Shown here: positions 11,326-64,000 of the stretch, piece by piece
Layout of the letters: every line of letters begins with the position of its first letter
Numbering within the stretch: position 1 is the stretch's first letter
Source of the DNA: Rhodospirillaceae bacterium
GTDB taxonomy: Bacteria; Pseudomonadota; Alphaproteobacteria; SP197
DNA length: 64,000 nt
Reading direction: 5' to 3'
NCBI GenBank assembly: GCA_002722885.1
Contig: PBNE01000018.1
Coordinates: 3,113-67,112, forward strand
The notes under the pieces: generated by a model
Told to the model about the DNA's origin: nothing
Seen by the model: the letters and a program-made list of their open reading frames with translations, nothing else
Database searches by the model: none
Program-made: the position numbers and the translations under genes

Positions 11326-11348
11326 GTGAATTCCTCCCCTCGGCCGCT

Positions 11349-17340: not shown

Positions 17341-17421
17341 GGCGCATGTCCTTCAGAAGAAATGGGATCTCACTGTCTGCTTCGGGCTGGTACCACGACA
17401 ATGCAACTCCGTCATGCCGGT

Positions 17422-18370: not shown

Positions 18371-18412
18371 CATCTGCACGCGCCTGAGGTTGGCCTCGGG
18401 CGCGTGCAGATG
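18371..18412 (-). terminator. 19-bp-stem hairpin downstream of the small membrane-protein gene
   Basis: CATCTGCACGCGCCTGAGG-TTGG-CCTCGGGCGCGTGCAGATG (one G-U pair). There is no U-tract, so its terminator role is inferred from position only. Confidence 0.5.
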
Positions 18413-18438
18413 CCATTGGGTAACTTACCCAGTTACGT

Positions 18439-18669: not shown

Positions 18670-18876
18670 TTTAAAACCTCCTAGCTAGAGAGTTAGTTGT
18701 TTGATGCACCCTCCAAGGACCTACTATATAGCATATTTAGTAGCGGCGACATCAATTAGTATCCTGCCCCAAAATTGGAGTGCGCGTCAGTTCAAAAGTG
18801 ACACGTCAGCAGAGAGGACTCGGACTTATCGGGAACAATGCTCAGCCCTGGTTGTTGGGAATCGTTCTCAAACCGG

Positions 18877-19642: not shown

Positions 19643-19743
19643 GCGCGCATAATCCGGTCAAGAAGGGCGGCAAGCGGCTTTGTCAACCTCCAACCAGCAA
19701 CCCTCTCAAACCTGAGTTTCAGGCTTGCATCACCGTTTGTTTC

Positions 19744-19770
19744 AATTGTTTCAGCGGCGCTGAAACAATT
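19744..19770 (-). terminator. Perfect 12-bp inverted repeat immediately after the 839-aa gene
   Basis: AATTGTTTCAGC-GGC-GCTGAAACAATT lies 6 nt downstream of the stop at 19776. No clear U-tract. Confidence 0.5.
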
Positions 19771-19775
19771 CGATC

Positions 19776-49929: not shown

Positions 49930-50712
49930 TTAAGCACCTTCCAACCCATCGATCAGGGCCGGCAGGTCAGCGACGGAATCGATGACGTGATCGGCGCCGG
50001 CGGCCCTCAGCTTAGCCACGGCGTGGTCACGCAACGGTGCGATCTCCGCTTCCGACATGGCCGCTAGCTCGTCCGGAGTCTTGCCGACATAGTTGCCCGA
50101 CAGCGATACACCCACGGTCAGGCAGCCCGCCGCCACACCCTCGGTAATCCCCGGCTCGGTATCGTCGACCTTGATCACAGCTGACGGCGGATAGACGTCG
50201 AGATCAATGAAGCATTGGTACATGCCCAGCGGCCCGGGTCTGCCTTCCTTAAGATCATCGGAACAGACGAGGTTGTCGGGTTCATAGCCCTGGGCTGCAG
50301 CCACCGGCAGGACGTGGGCCATGATCGAACGGGTGTATCCGGTGGTCGAACCAATCTTCATGCCACGTCTGCGAAGGTCCTGGATCGTGCCAAGCGCACC
50401 GGGAACCAGATCGGCATACTTGGCCACAACCCGTTCGTTCATCGGTACAAACATCTCGTAGAGCGCATCGACATCCCGATCGGTCGGCGCGGCTCCGTTC
50501 AACACTTGCCACTGCGTCGCAATTCGTCCCTCGCGCAGCATCGTCCGGATGTGGTCCCGTTTGGCCATGCCCATTGGCGCGCGGGCCTCCTCGACGGTCG
50601 CCTCGATGCCGAACGCTGCAAAGGCCTCCACGAACACGCCCATCGGCGCAAACGATCCGAAGTCGACCATCGTACCGGCCCAGTCGAACACCACCGCCTT
50701 GAACATCGTCAT
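49930..50712 (-). CDS. phnX: Phosphonoacetaldehyde hydrolase (phosphonatase), HAD superfamily
   Basis: AVVFDWAGTMVDFGSFAP (HAD motif I in the PhnX context), GMAKRDHI (Schiff-base Lys region), GSTTGYTR, GRPGPLGMY and DDTEPGI. Confidence 0.85.
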   Translation of the reverse strand: MTMFKAVVFDWAGTMVDFGSFAPMGVFVEAFAAFGIEATVEEARAPMGMAKRDHIRTMLREGRIATQWQVLNGAAPTDRDVDALYEMFVPMNERVVAKYADLVPGALGTIQDLRRRGMKIGSTTGYTRSIMAHVLPVAAAQGYEPDNLVCSDDLKEGRPGPLGMYQCFIDLDVYPPSAVIKVDDTEPGITEGVAAGCLTVGVSLSGNYVGKTPDELAAMSEAEIAPLRDHAVAKLRAAGADHVIDSVADLPALIDGLEGA

Positions 50713-51064
50713 GTGCGTCACCTGTTGTTGCGGCACTCTTGTTGACCTCAACCTGCCTGTAATCCTTCCAGCCGCGACAAGATTGTGAAGCCAATCAGAT
50801 TGTAAACAATTGCATCCTTTATTGATCTGCCGGAGCCGAGCCGATGTCTTCCCTGCCAAACAACACCGATGTTCTGGTCATCGAGGCATCCAGGATGGCC
50901 GTGCAGCCCCAGTCTCCGCTCTCGCCGAGATGTTCCAGCCAACCCTCAGCGGCGTCGCGCCAATTGTCGTTCACATCATTCCTCCCCACGGGCCGCATTG
51001 TGCTACAGGAGTCTGGAAGACACGAACACCTGATAACCTTTGGGAACCCGTGAGGCACGAGGCC

Positions 51065-52741
51065 ATGCGACACGCCCCAGACGCCAGCAGCGAAACGACC
51101 GTAAGCTATCGTCGGTCGCCTTCCGAGGTCATGCGGCTCGACCGGCTGGGTTCGTTTCATGCCACGCGCCTGTCCTTCATGCAGACGCTGCTACGGCGGG
51201 TGGAGCGCGAAGACTGGCGCTTCGAACGGCGGCTATGGGAAATCGACGAAAACGGTTTGGGTCGCGCGGTCTACACCGTCTACGGCCCGGAACGTGACTA
51301 TTCTCTTGTGGCCTTTGCCCATGATCTGCCCGACGACATGCGCTCGGACCGCGTCATCGCCACAGCCTGGGACGCCACCTTCAGCCTGTTTGACGGCATC
51401 CCCGACGAAGCGGACCTGCAGCGCCTGGAAGCCAATGTGCCGAAGCAGGAAGCCGGTCGGGTGTCCGACAACGAACTGTCACTTTCCCGCGCCAACCGTT
51501 CCGTGCGCCTGTTCAACCATGTCGTCGAAAGCCTGGCATCCGGCCAGCAGCCCGACCGCGAGCGGGTGGAGAGCACCGGCTACCTGATGCGGACCACGGC
51601 CGTCTACGGCTCCGGCAAGTTCGGCGCGGCAGACCGTGTGAAGATTGCCGACCGTCCGGATGTCAGCGGCCCCTTTCAGGCCGAGATGCTCTCGGTCTGG
51701 CTCACCCGCGCCTTCACCCTCGATCTCGCAGAACATCTGGCCCGTTGTCGGGGCGGCGAGCGGGCGACGACGCTTGATCCGGACCTGCGCCGCCTGTTCG
51801 GCGTCGGCAACTCCACCGGTCTGGGCATGGCTCCGTTCCTGATGAATCATCCCGTGCTCTTTAACAATTGGATCGCCGCGCGTGAGGAGGCCTTCGCCCG
51901 CGTCCGCGCCTTGCCCATTGCCGGGACGGAAGAGATTGCCACCTTCCGCGACACGCTCCAGGCCGCCATTCGCAACGCCCGCTTCTGGACGTCCGATCAT
52001 CCGCTTCAGCAGGACAAGCTGGCCGTTCTGCGCCGTGATCTCGAGACCATCACCGGACACACGACCGATAATGCTGCATTTGCCGGGGACAGACCGTGGG
52101 ATCGCCTGTGGCACTGGGGCCAGCAGACACTGGGTCTCGAAGGACAGGAGGCACTCGTCCCGTTGATCCTTGAGCCGCACGGAGATCTGATCGACGACCT
52201 CACCGCCTGCATGGCGGCTGATGAGGACTCGGAGTTCCGCATCAATGGTGGCCAGACCGTCACGGAGCTTCGGGATCTCATGGTCCGAAGCTACGACTGG
52301 GCGCTCGACACCGACTACGACACACCGGACCACAACGCCCGCTTCTGGTACGTCTCCGAAGAGAAACTCGAGCCGCGCCTGGGCGAGCGGCACAGCGAGG
52401 ACGGCGGCCACCTCGAACAACCCCTCGCCACCGGCCGCGACGCGGCGCGGCTGAAGACAGCGCTGGATGCCTGGCGGGGCGGAGACCTCGTGGCCGACTT
52501 TCTGCTCGCCCACCCCGAGCACCGTCATATGGTCCGCCGCGCCCAGATTGCCGCCCGATTCCCCTATTCCGAGATTCGCGACAACCTGATCGACGCCACC
52601 ATGCTTCCGATCGACCTGTTGCGCTGCAAGCTCTCCTTCTTCGGCGCCTCACGCTTCGATCCGCGTTCGGACCGTTGGGTACGCATCTGCATGTATCAGG
52701 GAGCTACCTTCCCGCACGAGCTGCTTAAGGCACCGGCATGA
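51065..52741 (+). CDS. Conserved-looking hypothetical protein (558 aa), no recognisable domain
   Basis: Long ORF with native-like composition and codon usage. ATGA overlap with the downstream gene. The start is uncertain (ATG 51065; the listed ORF opens at 50810). Confidence 0.7.
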   Translation: MRHAPDASSETTVSYRRSPSEVMRLDRLGSFHATRLSFMQTLLRRVEREDWRFERRLWEIDENGLGRAVYTVYGPERDYSLVAFAHDLPDDMRSDRVIATAWDATFSLFDGIPDEADLQRLEANVPKQEAGRVSDNELSLSRANRSVRLFNHVVESLASGQQPDRERVESTGYLMRTTAVYGSGKFGAADRVKIADRPDVSGPFQAEMLSVWLTRAFTLDLAEHLARCRGGERATTLDPDLRRLFGVGNSTGLGMAPFLMNHPVLFNNWIAAREEAFARVRALPIAGTEEIATFRDTLQAAIRNARFWTSDHPLQQDKLAVLRRDLETITGHTTDNAAFAGDRPWDRLWHWGQQTLGLEGQEALVPLILEPHGDLIDDLTACMAADEDSEFRINGGQTVTELRDLMVRSYDWALDTDYDTPDHNARFWYVSEEKLEPRLGERHSEDGGHLEQPLATGRDAARLKTALDAWRGGDLVADFLLAHPEHRHMVRRAQIAARFPYSEIRDNLIDATMLPIDLLRCKLSFFGASRFDPRSDRWVRICMYQGATFPHELLKAPA

Positions 52742-53442
52742 GTGATCCCACCGCGCAAACCCCGGCCGCTCCAACCACCGACGTCACTGGAGCCTGGGAT
52801 GTCTCGCTGGCCGAAATCGACGCCATGGGGCTGAAGGCCGCACGCGGGGCCGGGTTTGCCTGGGGCATGGCCCAGGAGGCCGGACGTGCGGCTCGTTGGC
52901 TTGCCTCCTACGGCCTGCCGGGTCCAGAAACGCTGGCCAACCTGCTGCAGATCATCGACGGCGAAAACGAACGCCACACGCCGGTCGCCGACGGTCCCGT
53001 CTGGCACGGCAGGGGTGGACCCATGTGCCCCATTCATCTGGGCACCGTGCTTTCGGATCGCGCACACGAGATCACGGATTCTCGACACATGGCGGCCGGC
53101 GCTCTTGACCTTCCGATTCTCGTTCTGCCCTTCCTGTGCCGTGTTGCCCGAGACCTCGACATGACCCTGATGATGGAGCTGCAGGCTCTGACAGCATATG
53201 CAACCCCCACGGGGCCGGCGCTTGAGGATCTGCAGGCACCCTGGCCCGGTACCACAGAACGCCTGGTCGTGAGCCGCGTCGCAGCTAGCGCCTGGACGCC
53301 CCGTTCCAATAAGCCCGATGCCCACACCATTCGCCTCGACATCTGGCGTGTTCTCGATGGTTTCGCCCAGCGCACCTATGTTCCGACAACCGAACAGTCC
53401 CGTGCCACCGGCGCCGGGTCCGGGCTTGACGACAACGACTGA
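52738..53442 (+). CDS. Hypothetical protein, possibly DUF3726-like (234 aa)
   Basis: GLKAARGAGFAWGMAQEAGRAARWLASYGLPG resembles, from memory, the N-terminal signature of DUF3726 proteins. Translationally coupled to the upstream gene. Confidence 0.7.
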   Translation: MSDPTAQTPAAPTTDVTGAWDVSLAEIDAMGLKAARGAGFAWGMAQEAGRAARWLASYGLPGPETLANLLQIIDGENERHTPVADGPVWHGRGGPMCPIHLGTVLSDRAHEITDSRHMAAGALDLPILVLPFLCRVARDLDMTLMMELQALTAYATPTGPALEDLQAPWPGTTERLVVSRVAASAWTPRSNKPDAHTIRLDIWRVLDGFAQRTYVPTTEQSRATGAGSGLDDND

Positions 53443-53514
53443 GCCCCAACGGTTCCCAAGGGCCGGCCTCGGCACTATCGTGTCCACCGCATTATCGAAG
53501 TTGAGGAGTGTGTG

Positions 53515-54702
53515 ATGCCTGATCCCAAGAGCGGCGAACTCAGAGGCAACCGGAACCTGAAGCGCCTTGAGCGCATCTCGCAGACCAAGCAGCAGCAGGA
53601 GATCGAACGCGGACTGGAGCTCGGGCTCGAAGCCGCCGAGTCGATCAACGACCGCACCATCTCGAACTTCAGCCGAGGCCACCTCCCGGCCTTTGCCGGC
53701 ATCAACACCTTCATGAAGACGCCGTATTGCGAGGACATTCGCAAGGTCGGCGAGTACGAGGCCGCCTTTGTCGGCGTGCCCTTCGACACCGGCACCACCT
53801 ACCGTCCCGGAACCCGCTTCGGACCCCAGGGTGTCCGGCGCATCTCGGCGGTCTATGACGGCTACTGTGTCGACGGGGCCGTCGATCTCTTCGAAGAGCT
53901 CGATATCTGCGATGCCGGCGACATCTTTGTCATTCCCGGCAACATCGAAAAGACTTTCGATCAGGTCTCCAAGGGCATCTCGCATATCTTCCAGTCTGGC
54001 GCCTTCCCCGTCATCGTCGGCGGCGATCACAGTCTCGGCTATCCCAATGTCAGGGGTGTCGCGCCGCACATCGACGGCAATGTCGGCATCATCCATTTCG
54101 ACCGTCACCTGGACACCCAGGACATCGACATGGACGAGCGGATGCACACCACTCCGTGGTACTGGACGACCAACAACCACGAGAGCGTCGATCACTCCAA
54201 GGCCCATCAACATCACCACCACATGCACGATGTCGGGCTTTCCAACTGCCCGCCGAAGAACCTGGTGCAGATCGGCATCGGCGGCTGGTACGGCAACCGT
54301 CCGGGCTCCGAGGTCGCGCGCGACCGCGGCACCAGCGTCATCACCATGAAGGATTTCGAGGAGCTGGGTATCGCCGGCACCGCCGAAATGGCGCTGGAAC
54401 TCGCCTGGAAAGACGCTGAGGCGGTTTATCTCTCCTTCGATATCGACTCGATCGATCCCGGTTACGCGCCGGGCACCGGCACACCGGAACCGGGCGGCTT
54501 CACACCGCGCGAGGCGCTCGAGATGGTACGCCTGATCGCCCGTGAAGGCCTTTGCGCCATGGAAGTGGTCGAGGTTTCACCGCCCTATGACGTGAACGAC
54601 AACACCTCCCAGCTCGCCTGCCGTGTCATCCTGGACACGTTGGGTACCATGGTCAGCGAGGGCAAACTGGGCCACCGCGATCAGGTCATGCGGCCCGAGT
54701 AG
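53515..54702 (+). CDS. Arginase/agmatinase/guanidino-acid hydrolase (ureohydrolase) family protein with N-terminal extension and a His-rich insertion
   Basis: Metal-ligand blocks VGGDHSLGYP, IHFDRHLDT and LSFDIDSIDPGYAPGTGTPEPGG. GAGGAG Shine-Dalgarno 7 nt upstream of ATG 53515. Confidence 0.88.
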   Translation: MPDPKSGELRGNRNLKRLERISQTKQQQEIERGLELGLEAAESINDRTISNFSRGHLPAFAGINTFMKTPYCEDIRKVGEYEAAFVGVPFDTGTTYRPGTRFGPQGVRRISAVYDGYCVDGAVDLFEELDICDAGDIFVIPGNIEKTFDQVSKGISHIFQSGAFPVIVGGDHSLGYPNVRGVAPHIDGNVGIIHFDRHLDTQDIDMDERMHTTPWYWTTNNHESVDHSKAHQHHHHMHDVGLSNCPPKNLVQIGIGGWYGNRPGSEVARDRGTSVITMKDFEELGIAGTAEMALELAWKDAEAVYLSFDIDSIDPGYAPGTGTPEPGGFTPREALEMVRLIAREGLCAMEVVEVSPPYDVNDNTSQLACRVILDTLGTMVSEGKLGHRDQVMRPE

Positions 54703-54721
54703 AAGGACAGGAGTTTCCCTC

Positions 54722-55408
54722 GTGACATTTGCCGTTCCCCCGCTTGATCCTGTCGGGCTCGCCATCGAGGACAGCGAGGCGTTACTCCCTGTCGCCCGCG
54801 CCTATTGCATCGGCCGCAACTATGCCGATCACTCCATCGAGATGGGCGGAAACCCTGACCGCGAGGAACCGTTCTTCTTCACCAAACCGGCAACAGCCAT
54901 CGTTCCCGGTGGTGGCGAAATCGCCTACCCCAGTGCCACGTCGGATATGCATCACGAGCTTGAGCTTGTCGTGGCGCTCGGCAAGGGCGGGCGGGACATT
55001 GCCGTGGGCGACGCTCTGGATCATGTCTTCGGCTATGCCGTCGGCATCGACCTCACCCGCCGCGACCTGCAGGCAGCCGCGAAGAAGGCAAGTCGTCCCT
55101 GGGACATGTCCAAGGGCTTTGACCAGTCAGGCCCCATCGGCACGCTCATGACGGTCGATGCCTGCGGCCATATCGACGATGCGCCCATGAGTCTCACGGT
55201 GAACGGCGAGACGCGTCAGAGCGGTAATGTGAACCAGATGATCTGGAAGCCGCCCGAAGCGATCGCCTATCTCTCCGGTCTTGTGGAGTTGCGCGCCGGC
55301 GATATCATCTTCACCGGCACACCCGCCGGCGTTGCTGCGGTGGAGCGGGGCGACAGCCTTCATGCCGACGTTGCCGGACTTCCGGCCCTCGACTGCACCG
55401 TCGTCTGA
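54722..55408 (+). CDS. Fumarylacetoacetate hydrolase (FAH)-family protein
   Basis: YCIGRNYADH, FFTKP, ELELVVALG, GYAVGIDLTRRD and IFTGTPAGV. GTG 54722 is preceded by AGGAG. Confidence 0.85.
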   Translation: MTFAVPPLDPVGLAIEDSEALLPVARAYCIGRNYADHSIEMGGNPDREEPFFFTKPATAIVPGGGEIAYPSATSDMHHELELVVALGKGGRDIAVGDALDHVFGYAVGIDLTRRDLQAAAKKASRPWDMSKGFDQSGPIGTLMTVDACGHIDDAPMSLTVNGETRQSGNVNQMIWKPPEAIAYLSGLVELRAGDIIFTGTPAGVAAVERGDSLHADVAGLPALDCTVV

Positions 55409-55426
55409 TACGCCCGCGACCCGGGT

Positions 55427-56464
55427 CTAAGTCAGGTCCGCGCGGTCGATCACTGAGCAGATCATGGCGAGGTGATCACCGGGTTTGACGACCGGGTTCC
55501 GCCGCCGCACGGCCAGGAGGCCGCTTTGCGGCGCCACAAGTGTGCCGGCAATCATGCCAAAGCGATGAACATCGTGAATCGTCGCCACAAGAGCACCTTC
55601 CTCGACTTCCTGAGCCAGTACGAGATGTGGCTCGGCCAGGCCGTGACAATCGGTCGTAAGCAGTGAAGCGCCGTCGGTGATGTTCAGGAAGGTGGTAGCG
55701 GCTCCCTGCGAATCACCGCCCAGCGCATCGCGCAGGTCGCTGTCGATCAACCCTTCGCGACACAACAGCCGCAGGCAGCCTCGCCAGCCATGATCGAGCG
55801 AGGAGGCCGAGACCGTTCCCATACCGCCAAGCTCACAAGACAGGAATCGCGTGTTCTGACGGTAGGCCGCCGTATCGAAATCACCGGAATAGGGTCCGCC
55901 GATGGGACAGATCATGGTGTGCGGTGCTCCGAAACACTCGGCTGACGCCAGATTGTCCGCATCAAGCTCGGGCTGATCGCCGCGGCAGAGGAAGGCGCAA
56001 TCGACATACTGGGTTGCCGTGCCGCCTGAATGGAAATCGAGGATCAGGTCGGCCATGGCGATTAGATGCTCGTTGACCCATCCTGCAATGGCACGGGTCG
56101 GTCCCTGATCGGTCGCACCGGGAAAGGCCCGGTTCATGTTGCCCTTGTCCAGTGGCGAGACTCGAGCTCTGTCCAGCATGGCCGGCGTGTTGAGCGCCGG
56201 CATCATGATCAGCCGGCCCGAGATCTGATTCGGTGCCAGCGCGGTCATCAGCTGCCGCAAAACGATCTGTCCTTCGTACTCGTCTCCGTGATTGCCGGCT
56301 GTCAGCAGGATCGTCGGCCCGTCACCACCGACAAGAACGCCGATTGGCACACGAATGCTGCTGAAGGCATGCTCGCTGTCGGAGTGATCGAGATCGACAA
56401 ATCCGGCCCGTTTCCCTGGTGCCTCAAAATCAAGGGCGCAGCGCGCCGGCCCAAAGCTCAGCAT
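55427..56464 (-). CDS. Succinylglutamate desuccinylase/aspartoacylase (AstE/AspA, M14-like) family deacylase
   Basis: ILLTAGNHGDEYEG (zinc-ligand H..E block) and LDFHSGG. TGATG overlap with the upstream hyuB-like gene. Confidence 0.85.
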   Translation of the reverse strand: MLSFGPARCALDFEAPGKRAGFVDLDHSDSEHAFSSIRVPIGVLVGGDGPTILLTAGNHGDEYEGQIVLRQLMTALAPNQISGRLIMMPALNTPAMLDRARVSPLDKGNMNRAFPGATDQGPTRAIAGWVNEHLIAMADLILDFHSGGTATQYVDCAFLCRGDQPELDADNLASAECFGAPHTMICPIGGPYSGDFDTAAYRQNTRFLSCELGGMGTVSASSLDHGWRGCLRLLCREGLIDSDLRDALGGDSQGAATTFLNITDGASLLTTDCHGLAEPHLVLAQEVEEGALVATIHDVHRFGMIAGTLVAPQSGLLAVRRRNPVVKPGDHLAMICSVIDRADLT

Positions 56465-58239
56465 CAGTTTTCCCCTTCTTCGTTCGTGAGGCGCCGCCGC
56501 AAGGCAGTCGTCGCGTCCCCATCGACTCCGCCCGATGTATCGAGCACGACGCCGTAAACATCCCGCGCCCTTTGCACCGACACCAGACCTTCGGCAACAT
56601 CATGGGCCACACGGCCGGGTTCCCTTCGATGGGCAGCACCATAACCGCCGCCACCCGGTGAAACACCGGTGACGCAATCGCCCTTCTCCAGCACTAGGGT
56701 CGCCCAACCGTCGGCCGCCTCGTCGTCTCCGGCACGGCGGGTCACGGTGTTGCGTGCCGGGGCACCCGCACCACCACCCCGCGCACCCAGCGCCGGGAAG
56801 GTCGTGCCATCACTTTGATAAAACACCTCCATGCAGGCACCATGAGCCGCAAAGGTGACCTGCGACGCCGGAGCCCCCCGGAACGTCCCGGCACCCTCGC
56901 GATCCGGCACCAGGCGTCGTTCGGTCACGAGCACGGGATGGCGCAGCTCATCGACCTCGACGCTGTCAAAAAACGACATTCCGGCCGTGCCGGTCGTGAT
57001 CATTGCAAGCCAGCCGTCGGCACGCGGGCTTCCTGCTCCCAGCGTGTCGCCCAGGATCAACTGGTCGACGAAGGGCCTGCCGTCCCGTCCCTCCTCGTGG
57101 CCGGAGATCACCGCCTGCGCTGCGGTCTGAACGCCGCCGACCTCGGCCATGCCGTAGCCATCCGCCAGATTGGCAAAGGCTAGGTGCACCGCATTGGTCA
57201 GCCGGTCTGCGACGTTCTGGGTCGCCACTGAACAGCTCGTCGGATGGCGCGGAATTCCCACCACGCAATTCTCGCGCAGAGCCATATCCAGTCGCCGGAA
57301 GCTGCCTGCGTTGGTCGGCACATCAAGACCCAGACTGTTGAACGTCCCCACCATGGCGGCCGTTCGGGCGCAGGCCTCGCTGAGGTTGAGCCCGTTGGGC
57401 AGACAATCGGGGTTGTCGGTGAGATCAACCGCGATCCTGCCTCCCTCAGGGTCGACCGCAATCTCGGCCTTGATCGGGATGCCGTCCGCGGGCGTGCCGG
57501 GGAACGGATCGTGCCGTGTCTGACCGACTGCCGACCCTGCGGGCAGTTCCGCGACGGCCAGCGCCATTCGGCGTTCGCTGTAATCGAACCAGGCGGCGAT
57601 CATCTCGTCCAACCGGTCCCAGCCCATCTCACCGGCCAGCGTGATCAGTTCTCGCTCGCCCACACGCGCGGAGCCGACGCCGGCAAGATAGTCCCCGCGC
57701 CACTGCTCCGGGCTCCGGATGCGCAGTTCACACATTCGAATAAGGTCATCGAGGTCCTCGTAGTCACGCTGCACGCGGGTCGCGGCAAAGATCAATGCAC
57801 CTTCCTCGTACACATCACGGGCGGCAGCGTGATAGGTCGTGGGCACAGAGTTGCCGATGTCGGCCTGGTGGGCCTTGGCCATCACTGTGAAGCGATGGCG
57901 ACCCTGATCATCCATGACAGGCACCAGAACCGAGAGATCGGCCGCGTGGGAACAGCCGTGATAGGGCGAGTTGTGCAGAAACGCGTCGCCAGCCGCCAGG
58001 CCAGGGTGAAAGTCCTGCATCGTCGCTGCCATCTGGTCCGGGCCCGCCATCACGTGGATGGGAAGGCTTTCGGCAGCGGCCACCAGTTCGTTGCCCGCCG
58101 TAAGCACGCAGCAGGAGAAATCCCGACCCGTGTTGATCACGCCGGAGCGCGCAGAACGCAGCAGCGTGTTCTGCATCTTGCGTGCGACCCCTTCCATGCG
58201 CTTGGAGAAGATCGCGAGATCGAGGCCACTCACGGTCAT
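56464..58239 (-). CDS. Hydantoinase B/oxoprolinase family protein
   Basis: FSCCVLTA, NSPYHG.SH..D and ADGW..GG..G blocks typical of HyuB. ATGA overlap with the hyuA-like gene. Confidence 0.9.
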   Translation of the reverse strand: MTVSGLDLAIFSKRMEGVARKMQNTLLRSARSGVINTGRDFSCCVLTAGNELVAAAESLPIHVMAGPDQMAATMQDFHPGLAAGDAFLHNSPYHGCSHAADLSVLVPVMDDQGRHRFTVMAKAHQADIGNSVPTTYHAAARDVYEEGALIFAATRVQRDYEDLDDLIRMCELRIRSPEQWRGDYLAGVGSARVGERELITLAGEMGWDRLDEMIAAWFDYSERRMALAVAELPAGSAVGQTRHDPFPGTPADGIPIKAEIAVDPEGGRIAVDLTDNPDCLPNGLNLSEACARTAAMVGTFNSLGLDVPTNAGSFRRLDMALRENCVVGIPRHPTSCSVATQNVADRLTNAVHLAFANLADGYGMAEVGGVQTAAQAVISGHEEGRDGRPFVDQLILGDTLGAGSPRADGWLAMITTGTAGMSFFDSVEVDELRHPVLVTERRLVPDREGAGTFRGAPASQVTFAAHGACMEVFYQSDGTTFPALGARGGGAGAPARNTVTRRAGDDEAADGWATLVLEKGDCVTGVSPGGGGYGAAHRREPGRVAHDVAEGLVSVQRARDVYGVVLDTSGGVDGDATTALRRRLTNEEGEN

Positions 58240-60314
58240 GACGTCATCTCCCCGCCGACAGTCACAATGAGATTTCCGCTCTCGTCGCGCCTAAAGGTCG
58301 CATCGTCGTCGACCACCAGGGTTGTGACGTCGGTTTCAACAAAAGCAGGCCCCGTGAACATCGCTCCGGGTTCCAGCGAACCGAAGCCGAGGACCGGCAC
58401 CGATTGCCAGCGCCCGCCCAGGAAACCCTGCCGTGTGTTCACCGAACCGATGCGATCACCGCCTTGTTCCAGCATTGCCAGCGGCCCGGAACGCAGGTCA
58501 GCCGAAACACGCGCGCGCCAGTTCACGAATTCAATCTCCGCCCCGCGATCGTCAAACGCAAATATGTCCCGATGCAGTCGGTGGAAGTCCTCGATCAGCG
58601 CGCCAATACCATCTTCGCAGTCGAAGGTGCCATCCCGCAGAGGCAACTTGATCTCCCAAATCTGTTGCGCGTAGCGCGCTTCAACACTGTAGGACACGCG
58701 TGCCGCCTGTGGATGGGCCAGCCGCTGTGCAAAGGCATCACACCGTTTCTTCAGGCTGTTCAGGACCGCTCTGGCGCGGCCGATATCGAAGGCATCGCTC
58801 CGGATGAGCTGAAACTCTGCAACGTCGTCGCTCAACGGGCACAGCAGCCCTCCGACGGCACTGATCGCCGCCCCCGCACCGGGGAACAAAACTGTCGAAC
58901 AACTCAGTCGTCGAGCAATCGCCACGGCATTCAGACCGGCCGCACCGCCACCGCCGATCAGCACCGTCTCACGGGGATCGACACCCTGATTGACTGTGAT
59001 GTCCTCGATCGCGCCGGCCATGGTTTCGGTTGTCAACGCCAGCACAGCCGCCGCGGCCTCCTCCACGTCAAGGCCCATTGGCTCGGCAACTTCCCGTACA
59101 AGCGCCTCACGCGCCAGGTCAGGGTCAAGCGCCATCCGTCCGCCCAGGAAGTAAGCGGGATCGATGTGACCCAGCACGACAGAGGCGTCGGTCACCGTGG
59201 GAAGCCGGCCGCCTGCGCCATAGCAGGCCGGACCGGGCACGGCCCCCGCGCTTTGCGGCCCCACGTACAGGAGCCCGGCGTCGTCCACGCCCGCAATGCT
59301 GCCGCCGCCGGCTCCCACACTCGAGATGTCGACCGACGGAAATCCTGTCATGTGGCCGAGGTAGGGCTGACCGATCCAGGTTTCGCGGGTCTCCGGGATC
59401 TCGCCATCCCGGACCAGCGCCACGTCGTACGTCGTACCGCCGGTGTCCGCCACGATAGCGCGGTGCCCCAATCCAGCCCGCTCGATCAGATGGTTGGCCG
59501 CGACAGGGGCCATAGCCGGGCCCGATTTGACGACGTGAACCGGTGATGCTGCGAGCTCGGCCGCTTCCTTCATCATGCCCTGTGAAGTCACCACCAGTAG
59601 CCTGCCTTCATAGCCGGCACCACGAAGCCGTTCCTCAAGCTGTTCCAGATATGACGTCATGACCGGCTTCAGCGCCGCATCCAGTGCCGTTGCCGACGCA
59701 CGTCTGTATTCGCGCAGCGACGGATTGACTCGGTGAGAAAGGCTGACGGGAAGATCCGGAAAGCGTTCCTGGAGCATTGCACCCACACGCTGCTCGTGAA
59801 TCGGATTAACGATCGACCAAAGAAGGCAGACCGCGATGGCCTCAACTTCTGCAGCCTCGAGCCTGTCCATGACATCAACCAGCCCGCCTTCATCAAGCGG
59901 CTGCACCACGAAACCTGTCACGTCGATCCGTTCAGGCACCTCGTAGGTCAGCGCCCGCGGCACAAAGGGCTCGGGATAGGCAATGCCGTGATCGAACAAC
60001 GGCAGTCCAATGCGGCCGCCCTCGCGCAACATCAGGATATCGGGATGGCCCTTCGTTGTCAGAAAGGCAGTGCGGGCCGTCAAGCCGGTGATCACAGCGT
60101 TGGTTGCCGTGGTCGTGCCATGCACGAAGAGCTCGCAGCTCGCCAGAAGTCTGGTTGTTGTCAGCTCCAATTCGCGTGCAGCCACGTCCAGGACACCAAG
60201 CACGCCGTCCACCGGATTGTCCGGGGTGGTCGGCGCCTTGAAGAGACGCAGCGTGTTACCGTCCTCGATCACCAGATCGGTGAAGGTGCCGCCCGTATCG
60301 ACCGCAAACCGCAT
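58236..60314 (-). CDS. Hydantoinase A/oxoprolinase family protein (ATP-dependent)
   Basis: MRFAVDTGGTFTDLV at the N-terminus, HGTTTATNA and DTGGTTYDV (actin-fold ATPase motifs). Confidence 0.9.
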   Translation of the reverse strand: MRFAVDTGGTFTDLVIEDGNTLRLFKAPTTPDNPVDGVLGVLDVAARELELTTTRLLASCELFVHGTTTATNAVITGLTARTAFLTTKGHPDILMLREGGRIGLPLFDHGIAYPEPFVPRALTYEVPERIDVTGFVVQPLDEGGLVDVMDRLEAAEVEAIAVCLLWSIVNPIHEQRVGAMLQERFPDLPVSLSHRVNPSLREYRRASATALDAALKPVMTSYLEQLEERLRGAGYEGRLLVVTSQGMMKEAAELAASPVHVVKSGPAMAPVAANHLIERAGLGHRAIVADTGGTTYDVALVRDGEIPETRETWIGQPYLGHMTGFPSVDISSVGAGGGSIAGVDDAGLLYVGPQSAGAVPGPACYGAGGRLPTVTDASVVLGHIDPAYFLGGRMALDPDLAREALVREVAEPMGLDVEEAAAAVLALTTETMAGAIEDITVNQGVDPRETVLIGGGGAAGLNAVAIARRLSCSTVLFPGAGAAISAVGGLLCPLSDDVAEFQLIRSDAFDIGRARAVLNSLKKRCDAFAQRLAHPQAARVSYSVEARYAQQIWEIKLPLRDGTFDCEDGIGALIEDFHRLHRDIFAFDDRGAEIEFVNWRARVSADLRSGPLAMLEQGGDRIGSVNTRQGFLGGRWQSVPVLGFGSLEPGAMFTGPAFVETDVTTLVVDDDATFRRDESGNLIVTVGGEMTS

Positions 60315-60488
60315 GGTAATGGTGCTGCCTTCCCTGAGGCTGGCAGCATGGCCTGCGACAAGGTGCGATGTCGAGCAGGCGCTTGGAAGTCACCATAGCG
60401 TGTCGGGTCTTGCCGATCAGTGCGATCGGGTTCAACGTCGCTCGACAAGACGGCCTAATCGCCTGATTTCTGTAGGAAAGGACACGAC

Positions 60489-60866
60489 ATGCTCGCCTAT
60501 GTGATGGTCGGCAGCGCCAATCTGAAACGCTCCGCAAAGTTCTACGACGCGGTGATGGATGCACTCGGCTACATCCGAACTGAAACTGAGAAGAGCTACA
60601 TCGGCTACGGGACCAAACGTGCCCCGGATCAGACGGTGTTTTACATCACCCGCCCCTACAACCGTCGCAAGGCAAGCGTGGGCAACGGCACGATGATCAC
60701 TTTGAAGGCGCGATCCCGCAAAGCACTCGATGCCTTCCACGCAGCTGCCCTTGCGAACGGCGGAACCAACGAAGGCAAGCCCGGACCACGGCTCGACGGC
60801 GACCCTACCTGTTACGCATATGCCCGCGACCCCGACGGCAACAAGATCTGCGCCTGCAGCCCCTAG
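60489..60866 (+). CDS. VOC (glyoxalase/bleomycin-resistance) family protein
   Basis: 125 aa. LAYVMVGSANLKRSAKFYDAVMDALG... and YAYARDPDGNKI are the typical VOC ends. Confidence 0.85.
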   Translation: MLAYVMVGSANLKRSAKFYDAVMDALGYIRTETEKSYIGYGTKRAPDQTVFYITRPYNRRKASVGNGTMITLKARSRKALDAFHAAALANGGTNEGKPGPRLDGDPTCYAYARDPDGNKICACSP

Positions 60867-61152
60867 ATCGGTTCGCTGGCGATGGCGCCAGTCAAGAGCG
60901 TCACGTCGGCGTCCCCGATGACGTTCCAGACGTCGAGCTGGATCGAGCCGCCGGTCAGGTCCGCGAAGTCGCCAACCGTCGAAACCAGTCCCTGATCGGC
61001 CGTGTAACGTTCCCAGTCAAACACATCGTTGCTGGCGAAAAACCCATAGGTCTCCGTCCTGTCGGTCGTACCGCCCCGTCAAAGTCGCACGTGACCTGTG
61101 CCTGCGTGCCATTACCTACCTCGCCGCCAGCATCGAGCGGCAATGTGAACAC
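60863..61152 (-). pseudogene. Frameshifted remnant of an unidentified gene (C-terminal about 90 codons)
   Basis: The native-GC minus-strand reading ..PLDAGGEVGNGTQAQVTCDFD switches frame to TETYGFFASNDVFDWERYTADQGLVSTVGDFADLTGGSIQLDVWNVIGDADVTLLTGAIASEPI*. There is no start codon, and the upstream part is replaced by lower-GC DNA. Confidence 0.35.
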
Positions 61153-61411
61153 CGAGCTTTTTGTCAGCCTTGCAAACAGATGTAAGCTCTACAGTTCCGA
61201 GAACTATGCCGAACTGCCAGCCCTATACTTCAAGGATATGGAGACCGACGAGTTTAGCGTTGTGCTTGCGTAAATGTTGTTGAGATACCGCGGGTTCCGA
61301 GAGCACCACTACTTTCAACTGGCCAAGGCTCGGTTCTGAAAGGTAAACACGCGAAAACCGGAGGCTTTAGCTTCCAGTTTTTCTGAATTTCTTAGCGAAT
61401 TTCACAACATT

Positions 61412-61439
61412 TTTACAAACGAATTATATTTGTTATCAT
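61412..61439 (+). promoter_or_regulatory. Sigma70-type promoter candidate for the islet genes
   Basis: TTTACA-N16-TATCAT in an AT-rich stretch, 27 nt upstream of ATG 61466. Confidence 0.45.
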
Positions 61440-61465
61440 TTCATGAATATCAAAATGAGTGTGAC

Positions 61466-61693
61466 ATGAAAAACGAGTCTGTAAAACGTGAGAAATTTGT
61501 GCGCCTAGCTGAAGGTCGAACTCAAGCAGCTTTGAACGCAATTCGGAAGATCGGAAATTTATCAAACATGCGTGCTTACGAGTACACAGATGCCGATATC
61601 AAGAAGATCATCAAAGCACTGAAAGATGCAGTTAGCGATGCTGAACGCAGCTTTTCGTCGACGGGCGAACAATCCGACGCGTTTAAGCTTTAG
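61466..61693 (+). CDS. Small hydrophilic helical protein (75 aa), unknown function
   Basis: MKNESVKREKFVRLAEGRTQAALNAIRKIGNLSNMRAYEYTDADIKKIIKALKDAV. Lies 9 nt upstream of, and co-directional with, the GHKL gene. An alternative TTG start at 61430 overlaps the promoter. Confidence 0.65.
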   Translation: MKNESVKREKFVRLAEGRTQAALNAIRKIGNLSNMRAYEYTDADIKKIIKALKDAVSDAERSFSSTGEQSDAFKL

Positions 61694-61702
61694 GAGAAGT
61701 CC

Positions 61703-63571
61703 ATGGGCTCGGAACCTCTGACGATATACGATGTAAAATTCACGATTCGGCGTATGATCCAGCAGGCACCGAAGAGCACTCTGGTCCGCGAGTTCTTCAA
61801 GAACGCGGAGGAAAATGCTGCGCTAACTCCAGGCGGGCAGGGAAAAATCCGTATCTATCCAGTAACTGTTGATGGGGTTAGAAAGCTCGCCTTTTGGAAT
61901 ACCGGGATTGGCATGGACGAGGTTGAGCTTCGGACGGCGACCGAGATCTCCGCTTCAATCAACAAGCGGATGGGGTTGGATGGCAACTTCGGCATTGGAG
62001 CGAAAGTGTCGGGGCTAGCCGTATCACCTGCGGGAATCCGATACAGGTCCTGTAAGAACGGTACAGTCAACGAAGTAACAATCGGTTATGACGAAACCGA
62101 AGGCGAGTATGTTCGTTTCGCAGTTCAATTTGATGATGGAAAGACGGACACCGTATTTGATGTCACTGAGGTAGTAGAGTCCGAGGGTCACTCAACGGAT
62201 AGCGATTGGACGGAAGTTGTTTTGCTTGGTGAAAGCGACGGACATGACACTGTAGACCAACCCCTTAAGGAGGGGGATTCCCTAGAGCGGAGCTATATCC
62301 CAAGTGAGATCTTTCGCCGCTTTTCGAGATTTGCGCCCGATGTTGAGCTCGATGTCGATACGGCAATGACAAAGGGCGGAGGAAAGGATGAAACCGGCAG
62401 AAACCGATCGGTCAAACCGCTAGAGGCAATTCTCGATGACTTGCCCAGACACGAAATTATCAGCGACGACGAAAGCCGTGTTTCCGTTCGATACATCCAC
62501 GATCCAAAGCACGCCACCTCGAGCCACACTGAAAGTGCTCGTAAAATCCCGGCTGTCGCATCGACGACATTCTGTGCGTTGGTTCATAAAGGCGAGCGTT
62601 ACGACTACAAAACCAAGAAGGCTTGGTCGTCGGCGGCGCCGAACTTTGGTATCCCTTTTGGCTCAAAAGTGCTGACAATTGAAATTCATCTCTCAGACGA
62701 TATGGCCTCGCCGAACCAGTACCGGGATGGGTTAACCGATCCAAATGATCGTTCCCCTCTCGTTGCGCAGGATTTCGATGACTCGGTGCGGGAACTAATG
62801 CCGGATTGGGTAAAGGCGATCATCCAAGCAGAATCTCCAAAGTCGGGAGAAAACCTTGATGACTTGCAGAGTGAGCTGCAGAAGCTGCTAGATGAGTTCA
62901 AGGTGCCGACCCCTGCGTACCGTGAGATTTCCGCAAACGATTCGGTGCGATCCGATACATCGGACCAAGGTGAAGATTCATCAGAGCCGGTTGATGTTGA
63001 TTTCAGTCAGTTCCCCGGCGACATTGACTTCACATTGAGAGAACAGGTCGATGAAGCAATAACGGGGCAACGGGCTAACCCAAATAAGGTCCGCCGCGCT
63101 CCACAAGGCGCAAAGGCGTCAAAAGCACTCCAAGCTTTGGAACGCGTCCCAAAGATCCACATTCTCGATGATCCAACTGATATCGACGATAAGTCGATCA
63201 AAGGAAAAGCCGCCTGCTACTACAAAGACTCGCAAGAGATTTTTGTTAATGGCTTTTATCCAGCCGTCGATCGAATGGCCACAGAACTAGAAGCAGAACT
63301 GGCCGGTGAGGGTGATGCCGAGGTGCGGCGTACAGCGATAATTATGGCGTCAAGACGCTCCATGGCCTTCCGTGTTGGCAAAGCAGTCTGTTATGCGATC
63401 AGTAAGCGCCTAGTTGACGAATGGAATGCAGACGATCTCGATAAGGCAACCTCACCCGAGGCGCTATCCCTAATGGCTGACGATTATCGGCAGGGCATAA
63501 GCGAGGCCAAGCGGCATGCTAAGCAGCAAATCAAGCTTGAGGATGTGGAGAAACTCATAGCATCTAGCTAA
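61703..63571 (+). CDS. GHKL-superfamily (HATPase_c_3/MORC-like) ATPase with uncharacterised C-terminal half (622 aa)
   Basis: Bergerat-fold motifs in the correct order: N-box REFFKNAEENA, G1 box WNTGIGMD, G2 box GNFGIGAK. The remaining about 450 aa have no recognisable domain. Confidence 0.8.
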   Translation: MGSEPLTIYDVKFTIRRMIQQAPKSTLVREFFKNAEENAALTPGGQGKIRIYPVTVDGVRKLAFWNTGIGMDEVELRTATEISASINKRMGLDGNFGIGAKVSGLAVSPAGIRYRSCKNGTVNEVTIGYDETEGEYVRFAVQFDDGKTDTVFDVTEVVESEGHSTDSDWTEVVLLGESDGHDTVDQPLKEGDSLERSYIPSEIFRRFSRFAPDVELDVDTAMTKGGGKDETGRNRSVKPLEAILDDLPRHEIISDDESRVSVRYIHDPKHATSSHTESARKIPAVASTTFCALVHKGERYDYKTKKAWSSAAPNFGIPFGSKVLTIEIHLSDDMASPNQYRDGLTDPNDRSPLVAQDFDDSVRELMPDWVKAIIQAESPKSGENLDDLQSELQKLLDEFKVPTPAYREISANDSVRSDTSDQGEDSSEPVDVDFSQFPGDIDFTLREQVDEAITGQRANPNKVRRAPQGAKASKALQALERVPKIHILDDPTDIDDKSIKGKAACYYKDSQEIFVNGFYPAVDRMATELEAELAGEGDAEVRRTAIIMASRRSMAFRVGKAVCYAISKRLVDEWNADDLDKATSPEALSLMADDYRQGISEAKRHAKQQIKLEDVEKLIASS

Positions 63572-63602
63572 TATCCTTAATCTCCTTTCCACCCAAAATG
63601 CC

Positions 63603-63632
63603 CCCCCGAGCACGACGCTCGGGGGAGATTTT
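63603..63632 (+). terminator. Rho-independent terminator of the islet operon
   Basis: CCCCCGAGC-ACGAC-GCTCGGGGG followed by AGATTTTG, about 30 nt after the stop. Confidence 0.75.
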
Positions 63633-63920
63633 GCGGCAAAAACTGTTTATGCCGCTGACTTCGAACCAAGGCTTTCAGACGCCACAGCCGCTCGAACTTG
63701 CATAACAATCAATTCATGGCTTGCTGAATTCTTCGAGATCTTCTGCGGATCCCACGCCCCCATATCCAGGGCGAGCTTTTAGGCACCGACCAAACGGTCT
63801 ATGTGACGGTGCAGAAAAGCGACAGGGTCATCGACGGCCCAAAGTACCTTTCCCCCGTCAACTTTCATCAAACCTGTCAAACCGTGGAACATGGGCGCAA
63901 CCAAACCGTCGGGGTAAATG

Positions 63921-63956
63921 AAAAAGGGCCTAGCCCATATGAGCTAAGCCCTTTTT
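63921..63956 (-). terminator. Bidirectional-looking hairpin terminator just downstream of the tRNA
   Basis: AAAAAGGGCCTAGC-CCATATGA-GCTAAGCCCTTTTT (one mismatch). On the minus strand the stem is followed by TTTTTCATTT. Confidence 0.6.
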
Positions 63957-63960
63957 CAAT

Positions 63961-64000
63961 TGGTAGCGGGGGTAGGATTTGAACCTACGACCTTCAGGTT
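63961..64000 (-). tRNA. tRNA gene, 3' 40 nt only (T-arm, acceptor 3' strand, encoded CCA); probably tRNA-Met(CAU), initiator-like
   Basis: The reverse complement AACCTGAAGGTCGTAGGTTCAAATCCTACCCCCGCTACCA has T-stem GTAGG/CCTAC, T-loop TTCAAAT and a CCA end. It closely parallels the 3' half of E. coli tRNA-fMet (..AACCCGAAGGTCGTCGGTTCAAATCCGGCCCCCGCAACCA). The anticodon is outside the window. Confidence 0.85.

Follow-up and report, generated by a model that had tools for sequence, protein, structure and literature searches.

Architecture of the locus

Near the right end of the window (the whole stretch of 64,000 nt of DNA that was analysed, from a Rhodospirillaceae bacterium), an islet of 2805 bp at positions 61153-63957 lies between the remnant of a native gene and the 3' end of a tRNA gene, and its only open reading frames are two cargo genes. 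The following features were located in this region:

60863..61152, minus strand: 3' remnant of a small native gene, frameshifted and cut by the islet on its 5' side (ORF pieces 60863-61024 and 60955-61152)
61153..61379, no strand: 5' non-coding part of the islet, GC 0.49, with a small hairpin and T-run at 61360-61375
61385-61391 and 61397-61403, no strand: two operator-like GAATTTC cores just 5' of the -35 element
61412..61439, plus strand: sigma-70-type promoter TTTACA-16-TATCAT from a promoter scan, with TG upstream of the -10 element
61445..61451, no strand: third, degenerate copy of the operator (GAATATC), lying 3' of the -10 element and 5' of the start codon, read from the sequence
61466..61693, plus strand: gene of the ATPase's partner, an orphan helical protein of 75 aa, conserved directly 5' of the ATPase gene
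61703..63571, plus strand: gene of a 622-aa ATPase with a GHKL plus S5-type transducer fold in the structure model
63601..63627, no strand: G+C-rich hairpin, a two-way intrinsic terminator (MFE -27.4 kcal/mol) that closes the cassette
63633..63915, no strand: 283 nt of non-coding islet DNA with no database match (Pfam six-frame, Rfam)
63916..63957, minus strand: hairpin adjoining the tRNA, an inverted repeat with 23-nt arms; islet-supplied replacement terminator for the tRNA/rRNA operon
63958..64000, minus strand: 3' part of tRNA-Met(CAT), with which a 23S-5S-tRNA operon ends; right junction at 63957/63958, tRNA proper at 63961-64000

An abrupt change to an AT-richer style at about 61150 had been claimed in the original prediction, and both the GC content and the tetranucleotide composition computed here bear it out. 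The GC content was 0.501 in the islet (61153-63957) and 0.614 in the remaining window, corresponding to a z value of -5.7 against 292 sliding windows of 2.8 kb, and the tetranucleotide distance of the islet lay 10.8 standard deviation units from the window mean. The GC3 values of the two islet genes were 0.46 and 0.54 compared to 0.71-0.75 in the neighbouring genes. The segment is foreign DNA beside a tRNA 3' end.

The borders were fixed by near-identical metagenome contigs. The search for an empty site, which had been proposed together with the prediction, yielded three empty alleles (L090, L091 and L096) that define both junctions: up to 61152 they match the window at 99.3-99.8% identity and there they depart from it, which places the left junction exactly at 61152/61153, and their homology resumes at 63958, with the right junction at 63957/63958. 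As these contigs keep only 302 bp of native DNA between the junctions, the islet replaced a native stretch, with 2805 bp gained and 302 bp lost, and was not simply inserted as originally supposed. Both junctions were reproduced in at least 10 independent assemblies from different samples. The filled allele L003 and the empty allele L090 both originate from the Tara sample ERZ909118, and the islet is carried by only part of the marine population; a metagenome scan with a junction-proximal 29-mer returned the same allele only. Sequence diversity was 0.04-0.3% within the islet and thus lower than the 0.3-1.0% of the flanks, and two of the five islet polymorphisms (61430 and 61434) are located inside the promoter. 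Since filled and empty alleles coexist in one sample, the islet is less diverse than its flanks and its composition has not been ameliorated, the islet is not old. Of the predicted "old, immobilised insertion", the immobility stands, as neither integrase nor att site is present, and the age does not.

The native gene on the left is both truncated and frameshifted, as had been noticed before, but the two defects differ in origin. In the empty allele L090 (6467-6856) the same native ORF runs 64 codons further, so that the truncation was caused by the islet; the frameshift is common to filled and empty alleles and therefore predates the islet.

The right edge is indeed a tRNA 3' end, positions 63961-64000 being the 3' part of tRNA-Met(CAT) on the minus strand, and the islet ends 3 nt from its CCA end. 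ARAGORN reported no tRNA in the window, where the gene is cut by the window end, and the contigs L002 and L003 were used instead; with ARAGORN and Rfam the tRNA, 5S and 23S genes were found on L002 and L090. Rfam searches of the islet and of the whole window returned nothing besides the tRNA. At the tRNA-adjacent place of the empty allele L090 (6930-6966) a different hairpin is present.

Traces of mobility were searched for on both sides of the cargo. A tolerant search (15-25 nt, 20% mismatches) found no second copy of the tRNA 3' end in 60800-63950, the best match being 12/15 and located inside the small gene, in line with the earlier failure to see such a copy at the left border. The islet has no terminal repeats, and no IS was found. 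Six-frame pieces of 61153-61470 and 63572-63960 contained no integrase remnant in Pfam searches at E <= 10; the non-coding stretch without integrase, originally given as about 290 nt (63633-63920), measures 283 nt. The left non-coding part (61153-61379) showed no similarity to related loci, plasmids or Pfam, BLAST of both non-coding islet parts against about 100 related loci and plasmids gave no match, and Rfam gave none for 63633..63915. A 12/14 repeat of the left-junction sequence at 63772 (family D1) was judged to be due to chance. Among the characteristics of integrase-mediated tRNA genomic islands, the tRNA 3'-end site, the deviant composition and the empty site in relatives are present; the islet has neither a gene or remnant of a tyrosine or serine recombinase nor, at its distal border, a directly repeated tRNA 3' end.

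The two-gene cassette and its regulatory sequences

The ATPase was modelled by AlphaFold2 with a pLDDT of 85, after a first run with 17 close homologues (pLDDT 48) had been set aside. Residues 1 to about 400 comprise the GHKL domain and the S5-type transducer, residues 403-464 a disordered linker, and residues 470-622 an orphan helical domain. Foldseek matched the model to Hsp90, MORC2/3/4, MutL LN40, SMCHD1 and GyrB with E values of 1e-10 to 1e-7 (probability 1.00 to Hsp90, MORC, MutL and GyrB), and alignments of 400-460 columns span both domains of MORC2/3/4, MutL LN40 and SMCHD1. GHKL motif I (general form ExxxNxxD, with the catalytic Glu and the Mg-binding Asn), which reads R29-E30-x3-N34-A35-x-E37, is invariant in 102 sequences, and motif III, the Gly-rich ATP lid (N95-F-G-I-G-A-K-V-S-G), is conserved. 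Motif II reads W-N66-T-G68-x-G70-M and departs from the GHKL pattern DxGxG: the adenine-contacting Asp is replaced by an Asn, which is invariant even in relatives at 30-40% identity, and ATP binding is therefore putative.

The Pfam models HATPase_c and HATPase_c_3 stay below threshold for the window ATPase and are recorded for its relatives. PDB sequence searches with the ATPase and with a profile of its C-terminal domain returned nothing significant, and no nuclease domain was found in the ATPase. Neither islet protein matches any family of PADLOC-DB v2.0.0 at E <= 1, and the ATPase and the pair have no NCBIfam or PHROG matches and belong to no Pfam family. More than 545 homologues of the ATPase at 59-81% identity, all unnamed, were found within a wider superfamily of about 1,100 clusters at 50% identity; neither the ATPase nor the small protein has a characterised homologue. 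Relationships to rIIA-like proteins and to Shedu-GHKL (VcSduA) were considered and rejected, as both are no closer than the generic GHKL fold and no nuclease domain is present.

In 68 of 77 genome loci the small gene (48-77% identity) directly precedes that of the ATPase, with fixed order and spacing of the pair and with DNA similarity that ends at the coding ends; in the window the stop codon of the small gene is separated from the ATPase gene by 9 nt. The small protein also accompanies a subfamily whose ATPase is 38% identical. It has no significant match in Pfam, NCBIfam, PADLOC, PHROG or PDB, the latter also searched with a profile, and no recognisable DNA-binding fold. The two-gene cargo is thus intact and conserved, as expected from the original view that it has been retained.

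Copies of a conserved palindrome, TGAAWTTCA, lie on either side of the -35 and -10 elements, bracketing the promoter, where the motif is enriched about 50-fold. The density of its core, GAAWTTC, over 67 loci is 7.46 per kb within the 210 nt 5' of the small gene versus 0.14 per kb elsewhere, and 61 of the 67 loci have one copy or more. In related loci the motif centre is located 13-14 nt before TTGAC, and a second GAAWTTC is found where the window has the degenerate GAATATC. The sigma70-like promoter predicted at 61412-61439 was recovered by the scan and coincides in position with the TTGAC -35 element and the operators of about 60 related loci. No enrichment of the motif was observed 3' of the cassette (0.25 per kb between cassette and downstream genes). 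The clean terminator, previously placed at 63603-63632, corresponds to the hairpin at 63601-63627, which is the strongest after the ATPase gene among 65 loci (-27.4 kcal/mol); most loci with downstream defence systems have no terminator at this place.

Distribution of the gene pair and arrival of the islet

In other Alphaproteobacteria the pair is found on ICEs, plasmids and tRNA islands. Three of these islands are flanked by att repeats: one in tRNA-Met with a 27-nt repeat and an integrase at the far end (L053), one in tRNA-Thr with a 50-nt repeat, an integrase and Gabija (L011), and one in tRNA-Glu of 3.9 kb with a 40-nt repeat and no integrase (L060). Relatives of the cargo do occur in classical islands at tRNA genes, the integration hot-spot named in the original prediction. 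Five independent loci, each at a different tRNA gene (tRNA-Met and three other isoacceptor types), have the 3' end of the cassette facing that of the tRNA.

We favour, with only modest confidence, the interpretation of the segment as a recent horizontal acquisition, an islet now immobile that is the remnant of a tRNA-targeting island and carries an autoregulated, defence-associated two-gene module. The module would have arrived as tRNA-proximal cargo of such an island, as in L053, L011 and L060, and one deletion would then have taken away 302 bp of host DNA along with the distal island and its integrase and att repeat. The islet resembles tRNA genomic islands and their integrase-less, CIME-like derivatives in its foreign composition, its tRNA 3'-end site and its presence/absence polymorphism, and its cargo has relatives in att-flanked tRNA islands, including the integrase-less 3.9-kb L060. 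It differs from them in that integrase, att repeat and second tRNA end are missing, 302 bp of host DNA were lost, and the tRNA closes an rRNA operon. The missing trace of integrase or att site in the window counts against an island followed by a deletion, which is one of two routes with a single or a double event.

The other route, which we regard as possible but on the unlikely side, is the acquisition of the same cargo by homology-facilitated illegitimate recombination in a single, integrase-free event, with an anchor in tRNA-Met/5S/23S, an illegitimate join in the pseudogene and the loss of 302 bp. Because an rRNA operon ends with this tRNA-Met, such a one-sided homologous anchor combined with an illegitimate join is a live alternative. 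The process has been documented in several bacteria (PMC3240628), and replacement with deletion is its expected outcome; moreover, one border lies in sequence conserved across species, the end of the rRNA operon, and att repeat, integrase remnant and IS are all absent. However, no donor tract is visible, as the first 637 nt of tRNA-5S-23S from the junction do not differ between filled and empty alleles, the same pair rides elsewhere on integrase-driven tRNA islands, including one in tRNA-Met, and the orientation of the cassette 3' end towards a tRNA 3' end recurs in the five independent loci mentioned above. Twelve SNPs in 23S between L002 and L090 were rejected as a donor tract, being far from the junction and maybe due to another rrn copy or a chimeric assembly.

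An ancestral segment with the short allele as its deletion, or junctions that are assembly artefacts, would fit the facts that metagenome assemblies break and may be chimeric at rRNA operons and that L002 and L090 differ at 12 sites within the last 110 nt of the available 23S fragment, but this explanation is extremely improbable and already contradicted, since the short allele has its own 302 bp, which continue the native ORF and are missing from the long allele, and hence cannot be derived by deletion of the islet, and since the repeated junctions in independent assemblies from different samples and the foreign composition also count against it.

The islet represents a cleanly bounded natural gain of cargo just 3' of an rRNA operon with no recombinase left, and is useful for studying how small cargo becomes fixed.

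Possible functions of the pair and comparison with known systems

The genes first downstream of the pair are co-directional in 42 of 63 loci (19 convergent), with a median gap of 114 nt, and the upstream neighbours are on the same strand in 33 and divergent in 32 cases. The known defence systems in this first downstream position are Gabija (at least 13 loci), QatABCD (3 loci), Septu/PDC-M01, PD-Lambda-4, Lamassu, E1-E2/JAB, AbiE, HipA and type IIG restriction-modification. About 30 of 64 loci, the window not among them, have Gabija, Qat, Septu, PD-Lambda-4, Lamassu, E1-E2/JAB or AbiE downstream on the same strand. No neighbour family occurs in more than 10 of the 64 loci, leaving the 75-aa protein as the only conserved partner. 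Solo intact pairs amid housekeeping genes are found in the window and in L086, L043 and L055, so that the pair arguably works on its own.

A defence role of the module is suggested by its gene neighbourhood only. The AT-rich promoter, bracketed by TGAAWTTCA, would drive the 75-aa protein and then the ATPase, with the strong terminator ending the unit. The small protein or the ATPase's C-terminal domain may bind the palindromes and repress the promoter, and the ATPase may work as a dimeric clamp driven by ATP, either sensing invading DNA or protein or acting on it. On this reading the host would keep the module, as a defence or defence-gating unit, for the protection it gives.

Somewhat doubtful is the view that the pair, instead of being an effector, controls the operon next to it, as do CapK-CapS, CapW and CapH-CapP; it would sense invasion or damage and license transcription of the downstream defence operon, by read-through from the pair's own promoter, with the window copy being orphaned. 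Unrelated and diverse defence systems directly downstream, the downstream bias towards co-directional genes (42 of 63, with 33 versus 32 upstream) and the mostly missing terminator after the ATPase gene in such loci, the strongest being that of the solo window copy, all speak for it, and there is a precedent for a GHKL-type protein with a small partner that controls immune operons (PMC13373217). The operator motif is not enriched between cassette and downstream genes (0.25 per kb), however, intact and conserved solo copies occur in four or more housekeeping contexts, and the architecture is unlike that of CapK/CapS, with no HTH/STAS, the opposite gene order and a MORC/Hsp90-type ATPase in place of an anti-sigma-type kinase. 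CapK is an HTH-STAS-GHKL anti-sigma-type kinase encoded by the first gene and CapS a STAS-wHTH protein (PMC13373217). The systems share a GHKL-superfamily protein with a smaller partner, a place directly 5' of many immune operons and operators in their own region; in the pair the small protein comes first and has no STAS/HTH, the large protein is of the MORC/Hsp90 type, and solo copies are common. Membership in CapK/CapS is ruled out by this architecture, with no HTH/STAS matches and reversed gene order. A rather speculative and unlikely reading is that of a sensor-controller not recognised before, in which a small repressor and a MORC/Hsp90-like clamp ATPase with an uncommon Asn in its nucleotide pocket would head defence arrays on alphaproteobacterial ICEs, plasmids and tRNA islands and gate the following immune operon by read-through from their operator-controlled promoter, and which could also persist and act alone, as in the window.

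It is quite unlikely that the pair serves the mobile element, by addiction in the manner of toxin-antitoxin systems, anti-defence or an establishment function, and is a selfish remnant in the window. As in type II toxin-antitoxin systems, a small gene comes first, the second follows closely (here after 9 nt) and the promoter is overlain by palindromic operators. On plasmids and ICE-like elements the pair adjoins ParB, DUF932 and toprim genes or relaxase and T4CP genes, in several elements being next to such conjugation or leading-region genes (ParB, DUF932, relaxase/T4CP), and one element carries an identical protein across genera. On the other hand, the pair is transcribed away from the ParB/DUF932 block and toward the defence cargo, only 7 of 72,556 plasmid records and none of 50,697 phage records contain it, and no toxin-like domain was recognised. 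Type II toxin-antitoxin systems also share the carriage on mobile elements and in defence islands, but the pair has no known toxin or antitoxin fold, and toxicity would be putative.

In its predicted fold and layout, the ATPase resembles the prokaryotic MORC/paraMORC GHKL plus S5 ATPases of restriction-modification and conflict systems (Iyer, Abhiman & Aravind 2008, PMC2292703): in the model, as in these families, the GHKL domain is N-terminal, an S5-type transducer comes next and the C-terminal extension is family-specific. The sporadic, laterally mobile distribution and the hot spots alongside other defence genes are also common to both. The conserved partner of the window ATPase is the 75-aa protein, whereas MORC/paraMORC proteins have SF2 helicase, nuclease or methylase partners; no nuclease domain was found, and motif II has an Asn where these families have an Asp. 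The cargo may matter more than the islet itself, as it belongs to a large unnamed family (more than 545 close clusters) outside Pfam families, NCBIfam and PADLOC, with a defined cis-operator and a striking place at the head of many defence systems. Should it turn out to be a defence system or to control defence expression, bacterial immunity would gain a MORC-like ATPase module, with a link to the proposed prokaryotic origin of eukaryotic MORC proteins.

From phage rIIA the pair differs in that its family is absent from phage genomes and no rIIB-like partner is present; the likeness, no closer than that to Hsp90/MORC, concerns the GHKL-S5 part, in which the ATPase model matches rIIA structure predictions with an E value of ~1e-9.

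Borders, composition and age of the islet

The islet (window 61153-63957) is real and well bounded. The following features were located in it:

61412-61439, upstream of the ORFs: promoter-like site TTTACA-16-TATCAT
61466-61693, plus strand: ORF of the 75-aa protein
61703-63571, plus strand: ORF of the 622-aa ATPase
63601-63627, downstream of the ORFs: G+C-rich hairpin
63916-63957: new hairpin, supplied by the islet in place of the native terminator

The G+C content drops from 0.59-0.68 across window 50000-61000 to 0.42 at 61200-61800 and then stays at about 0.51 up to the window end; for the whole islet it is 0.501, compared with 0.614 in the remaining window. The lower G+C content, claimed in the original prediction from the sequence, was borne out by sliding-window G+C and tetranucleotide analyses (z = -5.7 for G+C relative to 292 equally long sliding windows; z = 10.8 for tetranucleotide distance), and GC3 amounts to 0.46 and 0.54 in the two islet genes versus 0.71-0.75 in the adjacent genes. 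A second compositional outlier was observed at window 16200-20400 (G+C about 0.55, tetranucleotide distance 0.30 versus a mean of 0.18), where 17350-19000 is nearly devoid of long ORFs and a single 76-aa membrane-like ORF (18439-18669, minus strand) and a PAS-like fragment (19016-19642, minus strand) are located.

An empty site and the exact borders were sought by alignment to close relatives, using contigs that encode exactly identical proteins, and both were found. The near-identical metagenome contigs L090 (67.9 kb), L091 and L096 share 99.3-99.8% identity with window 54489-61152 and diverge from 61153; in L090 the homology resumes at 63958, and only 302 bp (6665-6966) lie between the junctions. 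The islet therefore comprises 2805 bp (borders at 61152/61153 and 63957/63958), which replaced 302 bp of native DNA, so that the predicted foreign segment was retained as an interpretation and plain insertion was not. The 302-bp stretch of L090 extends the minus-strand ORF of the decayed native gene by 64 codons and terminates in its own hairpin adjoining the tRNA. Deletion from the long allele cannot have given rise to the short one. The native small gene (window 60863-61152, minus strand; L090 6375-6856) carries the same frameshift in every assembly, with the islet present or absent, and is therefore a genuine pseudogene older than the islet.

The islet had been regarded as old but is recent. 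Filled contigs differ from the window by 0.3-1.0% in the flanks and by just 0.04-0.3% within the islet, which is thus younger than the diversity of the population, and one sample, ERZ909118, yields both a filled contig (L003) and the empty L090.

The right edge had been recognized as a tRNA 3′ end: the window closes with 40 bases that form the 3′ part of a minus-strand tRNA, which was missed by ARAGORN on the window because the gene is cut by the window end. On the filled contig L002 and on L090 it was identified as tRNA-Met(CAT), followed by 5S and 23S rRNA on the same strand, and the islet is consequently located directly downstream of an rRNA operon. Apart from three corrections (recent age, replacement, tRNA of an rRNA operon), the original prediction was largely right, and the islet itself represents an event of an ordinary type.

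The proposed lack of an integrase and an att repeat was also confirmed. The tRNA 3′ end was not found a second time in the islet region searched, the islet has no direct or inverted terminal repeats, and six-frame pieces of both non-coding parts gave no integrase or other Pfam match. Neither part resembled any of about 100 related loci or any plasmid searched, and a metagenome scan with a junction-proximal 29-mer retrieved the same allele only.

Organization and control region of the gene pair

The two-gene unit was shown to be self-contained and conserved. In 68 of 77 genome loci the gene of the 75-aa protein immediately precedes that of the ATPase, and it also accompanies the ATPase subfamily at 38% identity; no recognisable family was found for its product in Pfam, PHROGs or with a small-protein profile versus the PDB. 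At locus L101 (Rhodopseudomonas sp. HC1, 6146-8842), which belongs to a subfamily of about 33% identity, a RhuM-family gene replaces the 75-aa protein ahead of the ATPase gene, and the pair forms a lone two-gene islet between purine-synthesis genes and a PEP-mutase gene.

The sigma70-like promoter and the clean terminator ascribed to the islet correspond to the promoter-like site and the G+C-rich hairpin. Between loci, DNA similarity ends at the coding ends, while the upstream regions still share their architecture. The palindrome T-GAAWTTC-A occurs 7.46 times per kb within the 210 nt preceding the small gene versus 0.14 per kb elsewhere, with at least one copy in 61 and at least two copies in 39 of 67 loci. 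One copy has its centre 13-14 nt ahead of the TTGAC -35 element, and a further one follows the -10 element and precedes the ribosome-binding site; window copies lie at 61385 and 61397, with a degenerate one at 61445. As the palindromes are found at the promoter and are not enriched downstream of the cassette, the mobile unit consists of the promoter with its operators and the two genes, plus the terminator in the window. The conserved operator at the promoter is consistent with operator control of the unit, and the palindromes may be bound by one of its two proteins. Two of the five islet sites polymorphic among ten contigs, 61430 and 61434 (T/G and T/C), fall in the -10 / extended -10 region and give rise to three promoter variants in the population.

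The ATPase and its wider family

More than 545 full-length homologues of the 622-aa protein (59-81% identity), none of them named, were found in Rhodobacterales, Hyphomicrobiales, Sphingomonadales, Rhodospirillales and relatives. When a library clustered at 50% identity was searched with a profile, the wider family amounted to 1103 clusters at E <= 0.001, including fusions to long TPR arrays. Four distant relatives of 1000-1400 aa (P0146, P0150, P0164 and P0195) combine the GHKL-S5 module with 400-900 residues of TPR repeats, and the TPR-fused architecture is reminiscent of sensor-ATPases.

Pfam gave sub-threshold matches only (HATPase_c and HATPase_c_3), and NCBIfam, PADLOC and PHROGs gave none. 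A first structure model was poor; the second, generated from a 102-sequence alignment, reached a pLDDT of 85, and its residues 1 to 400-460 match Hsp90, MORC2/3/4, MutL LN40, SMCHD1 and GyrB/ParE. According to this model the N-terminal part is a GHKL domain with an S5-type transducer domain, by which modelling showed the large protein to be a MORC/Hsp90-type two-domain ATPase module. The remainder of the protein is divided as follows:

Residues 403-464: disordered
Residues 470-622: helical domain, no PDB match by sequence

The conserved motifs E30-x3-N34-x2-E37 and N-F-G-I-G-A-K fit an ATPase-type GHKL protein. Motif II reads N-T-G-x-G, with Asn66 (window 61898-61900) at the position normally taken by the adenine-contacting Asp of GHKL proteins; its invariance in 102 sequences, with identities as low as about 30%, may point to altered nucleotide use.

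The ATPase may function as an ATP-driven dimeric clamp that acts on a ligand derived from an invader, and the unit would then defend the host or gate downstream defence genes. Among described classes, the closest is that of the paraMORC families (Iyer et al., PMC2292703), whereas CapK-CapS (PMC13373217) differs in architecture and is therefore analogous in function only. The cargo represents an uncharacterised, widespread and distinctly organised module that merits experimental testing.

Neighbourhoods of related cassettes and origin of the islet

The two-gene unit was shown to accompany defence systems on mobile elements, yet it persists alone. No neighbouring family is common to more than 10 of 64 loci, and known defence systems repeatedly lie just downstream of the cassette (two Gabija subtypes, QatABCD, Septu/PDC-M01, PD-Lambda-4, Lamassu and E1-E2/JAB, further IetA-like, TIR, KAP NTPase, AbiE, HipA and type IIG restriction-modification genes). 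A co-directional first gene follows the cassette within 350 nt in 42 loci, against 19 loci in which this gene is convergent; on the upstream side, neighbours are on the same strand in 33 cases versus divergent in 32. Most loci have no terminator after the ATPase gene. Upstream of the cassette, genes of conjugative elements (DUF736, DUF2493, toprim, ParB and DUF932, or relaxase and T4CP) were found in about eight loci and on annotated plasmids; the ATPase family is uncommon among plasmids (7 of 72,556 records) and was not found in phage (0 of 50,697 records). The cassette stands alone amid housekeeping genes in the window, in Mesorhizobium (L086), and at L043 and L055, which adjoin tRNA-Arg and tRNA-Ser, respectively. 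The ATPase variant P0032 (L083-L085, L026-L032) is 100% identical in Maricaulis, Hirschia and many Tara contigs (73 index blocks), suggesting a very recent spread between genera; its carrier is an ICE-like element that also encodes a mer operon, AbiE and a type IIG restriction-modification system.

Classical att repeats surround the cassette in three loci:

L053: tRNA-Met, 27-nt repeat 8.5 kb away; integrase at the far end, cassette tRNA-proximal
L011: tRNA-Thr, 50-nt repeat; integrase, cassette and Gabija
L060 (Blastomonas MAG), 8169-12110: tRNA-Glu, perfect 40-nt repeats of the 3′ end; 3.9-kb islet containing just an HTH_3 protein and the cassette, no integrase

The L060 islet is a cis-mobilisable, decayed parallel to that of the window. 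The starting point may have been an island organized like L053 at the tRNA-Met of the window; a single deletion that began just ahead of the cassette, took out the integrase and the distal repeat and ended in host DNA would produce the present structure. The replacement-with-deletion geometry is explained equally well by one event of homology-facilitated illegitimate recombination with its anchor in the conserved tRNA/rRNA sequence. With filled and empty alleles identical over 637 nt of tRNA-5S-23S counted from the junction, this route stays plausible. Beyond this tract, the 23S fragments of L002 (3612-3724) and L090 (7603-7715) differ at 12 sites in 110 nt, which could stem from a further rrn copy, a donor tract or a chimeric assembly.
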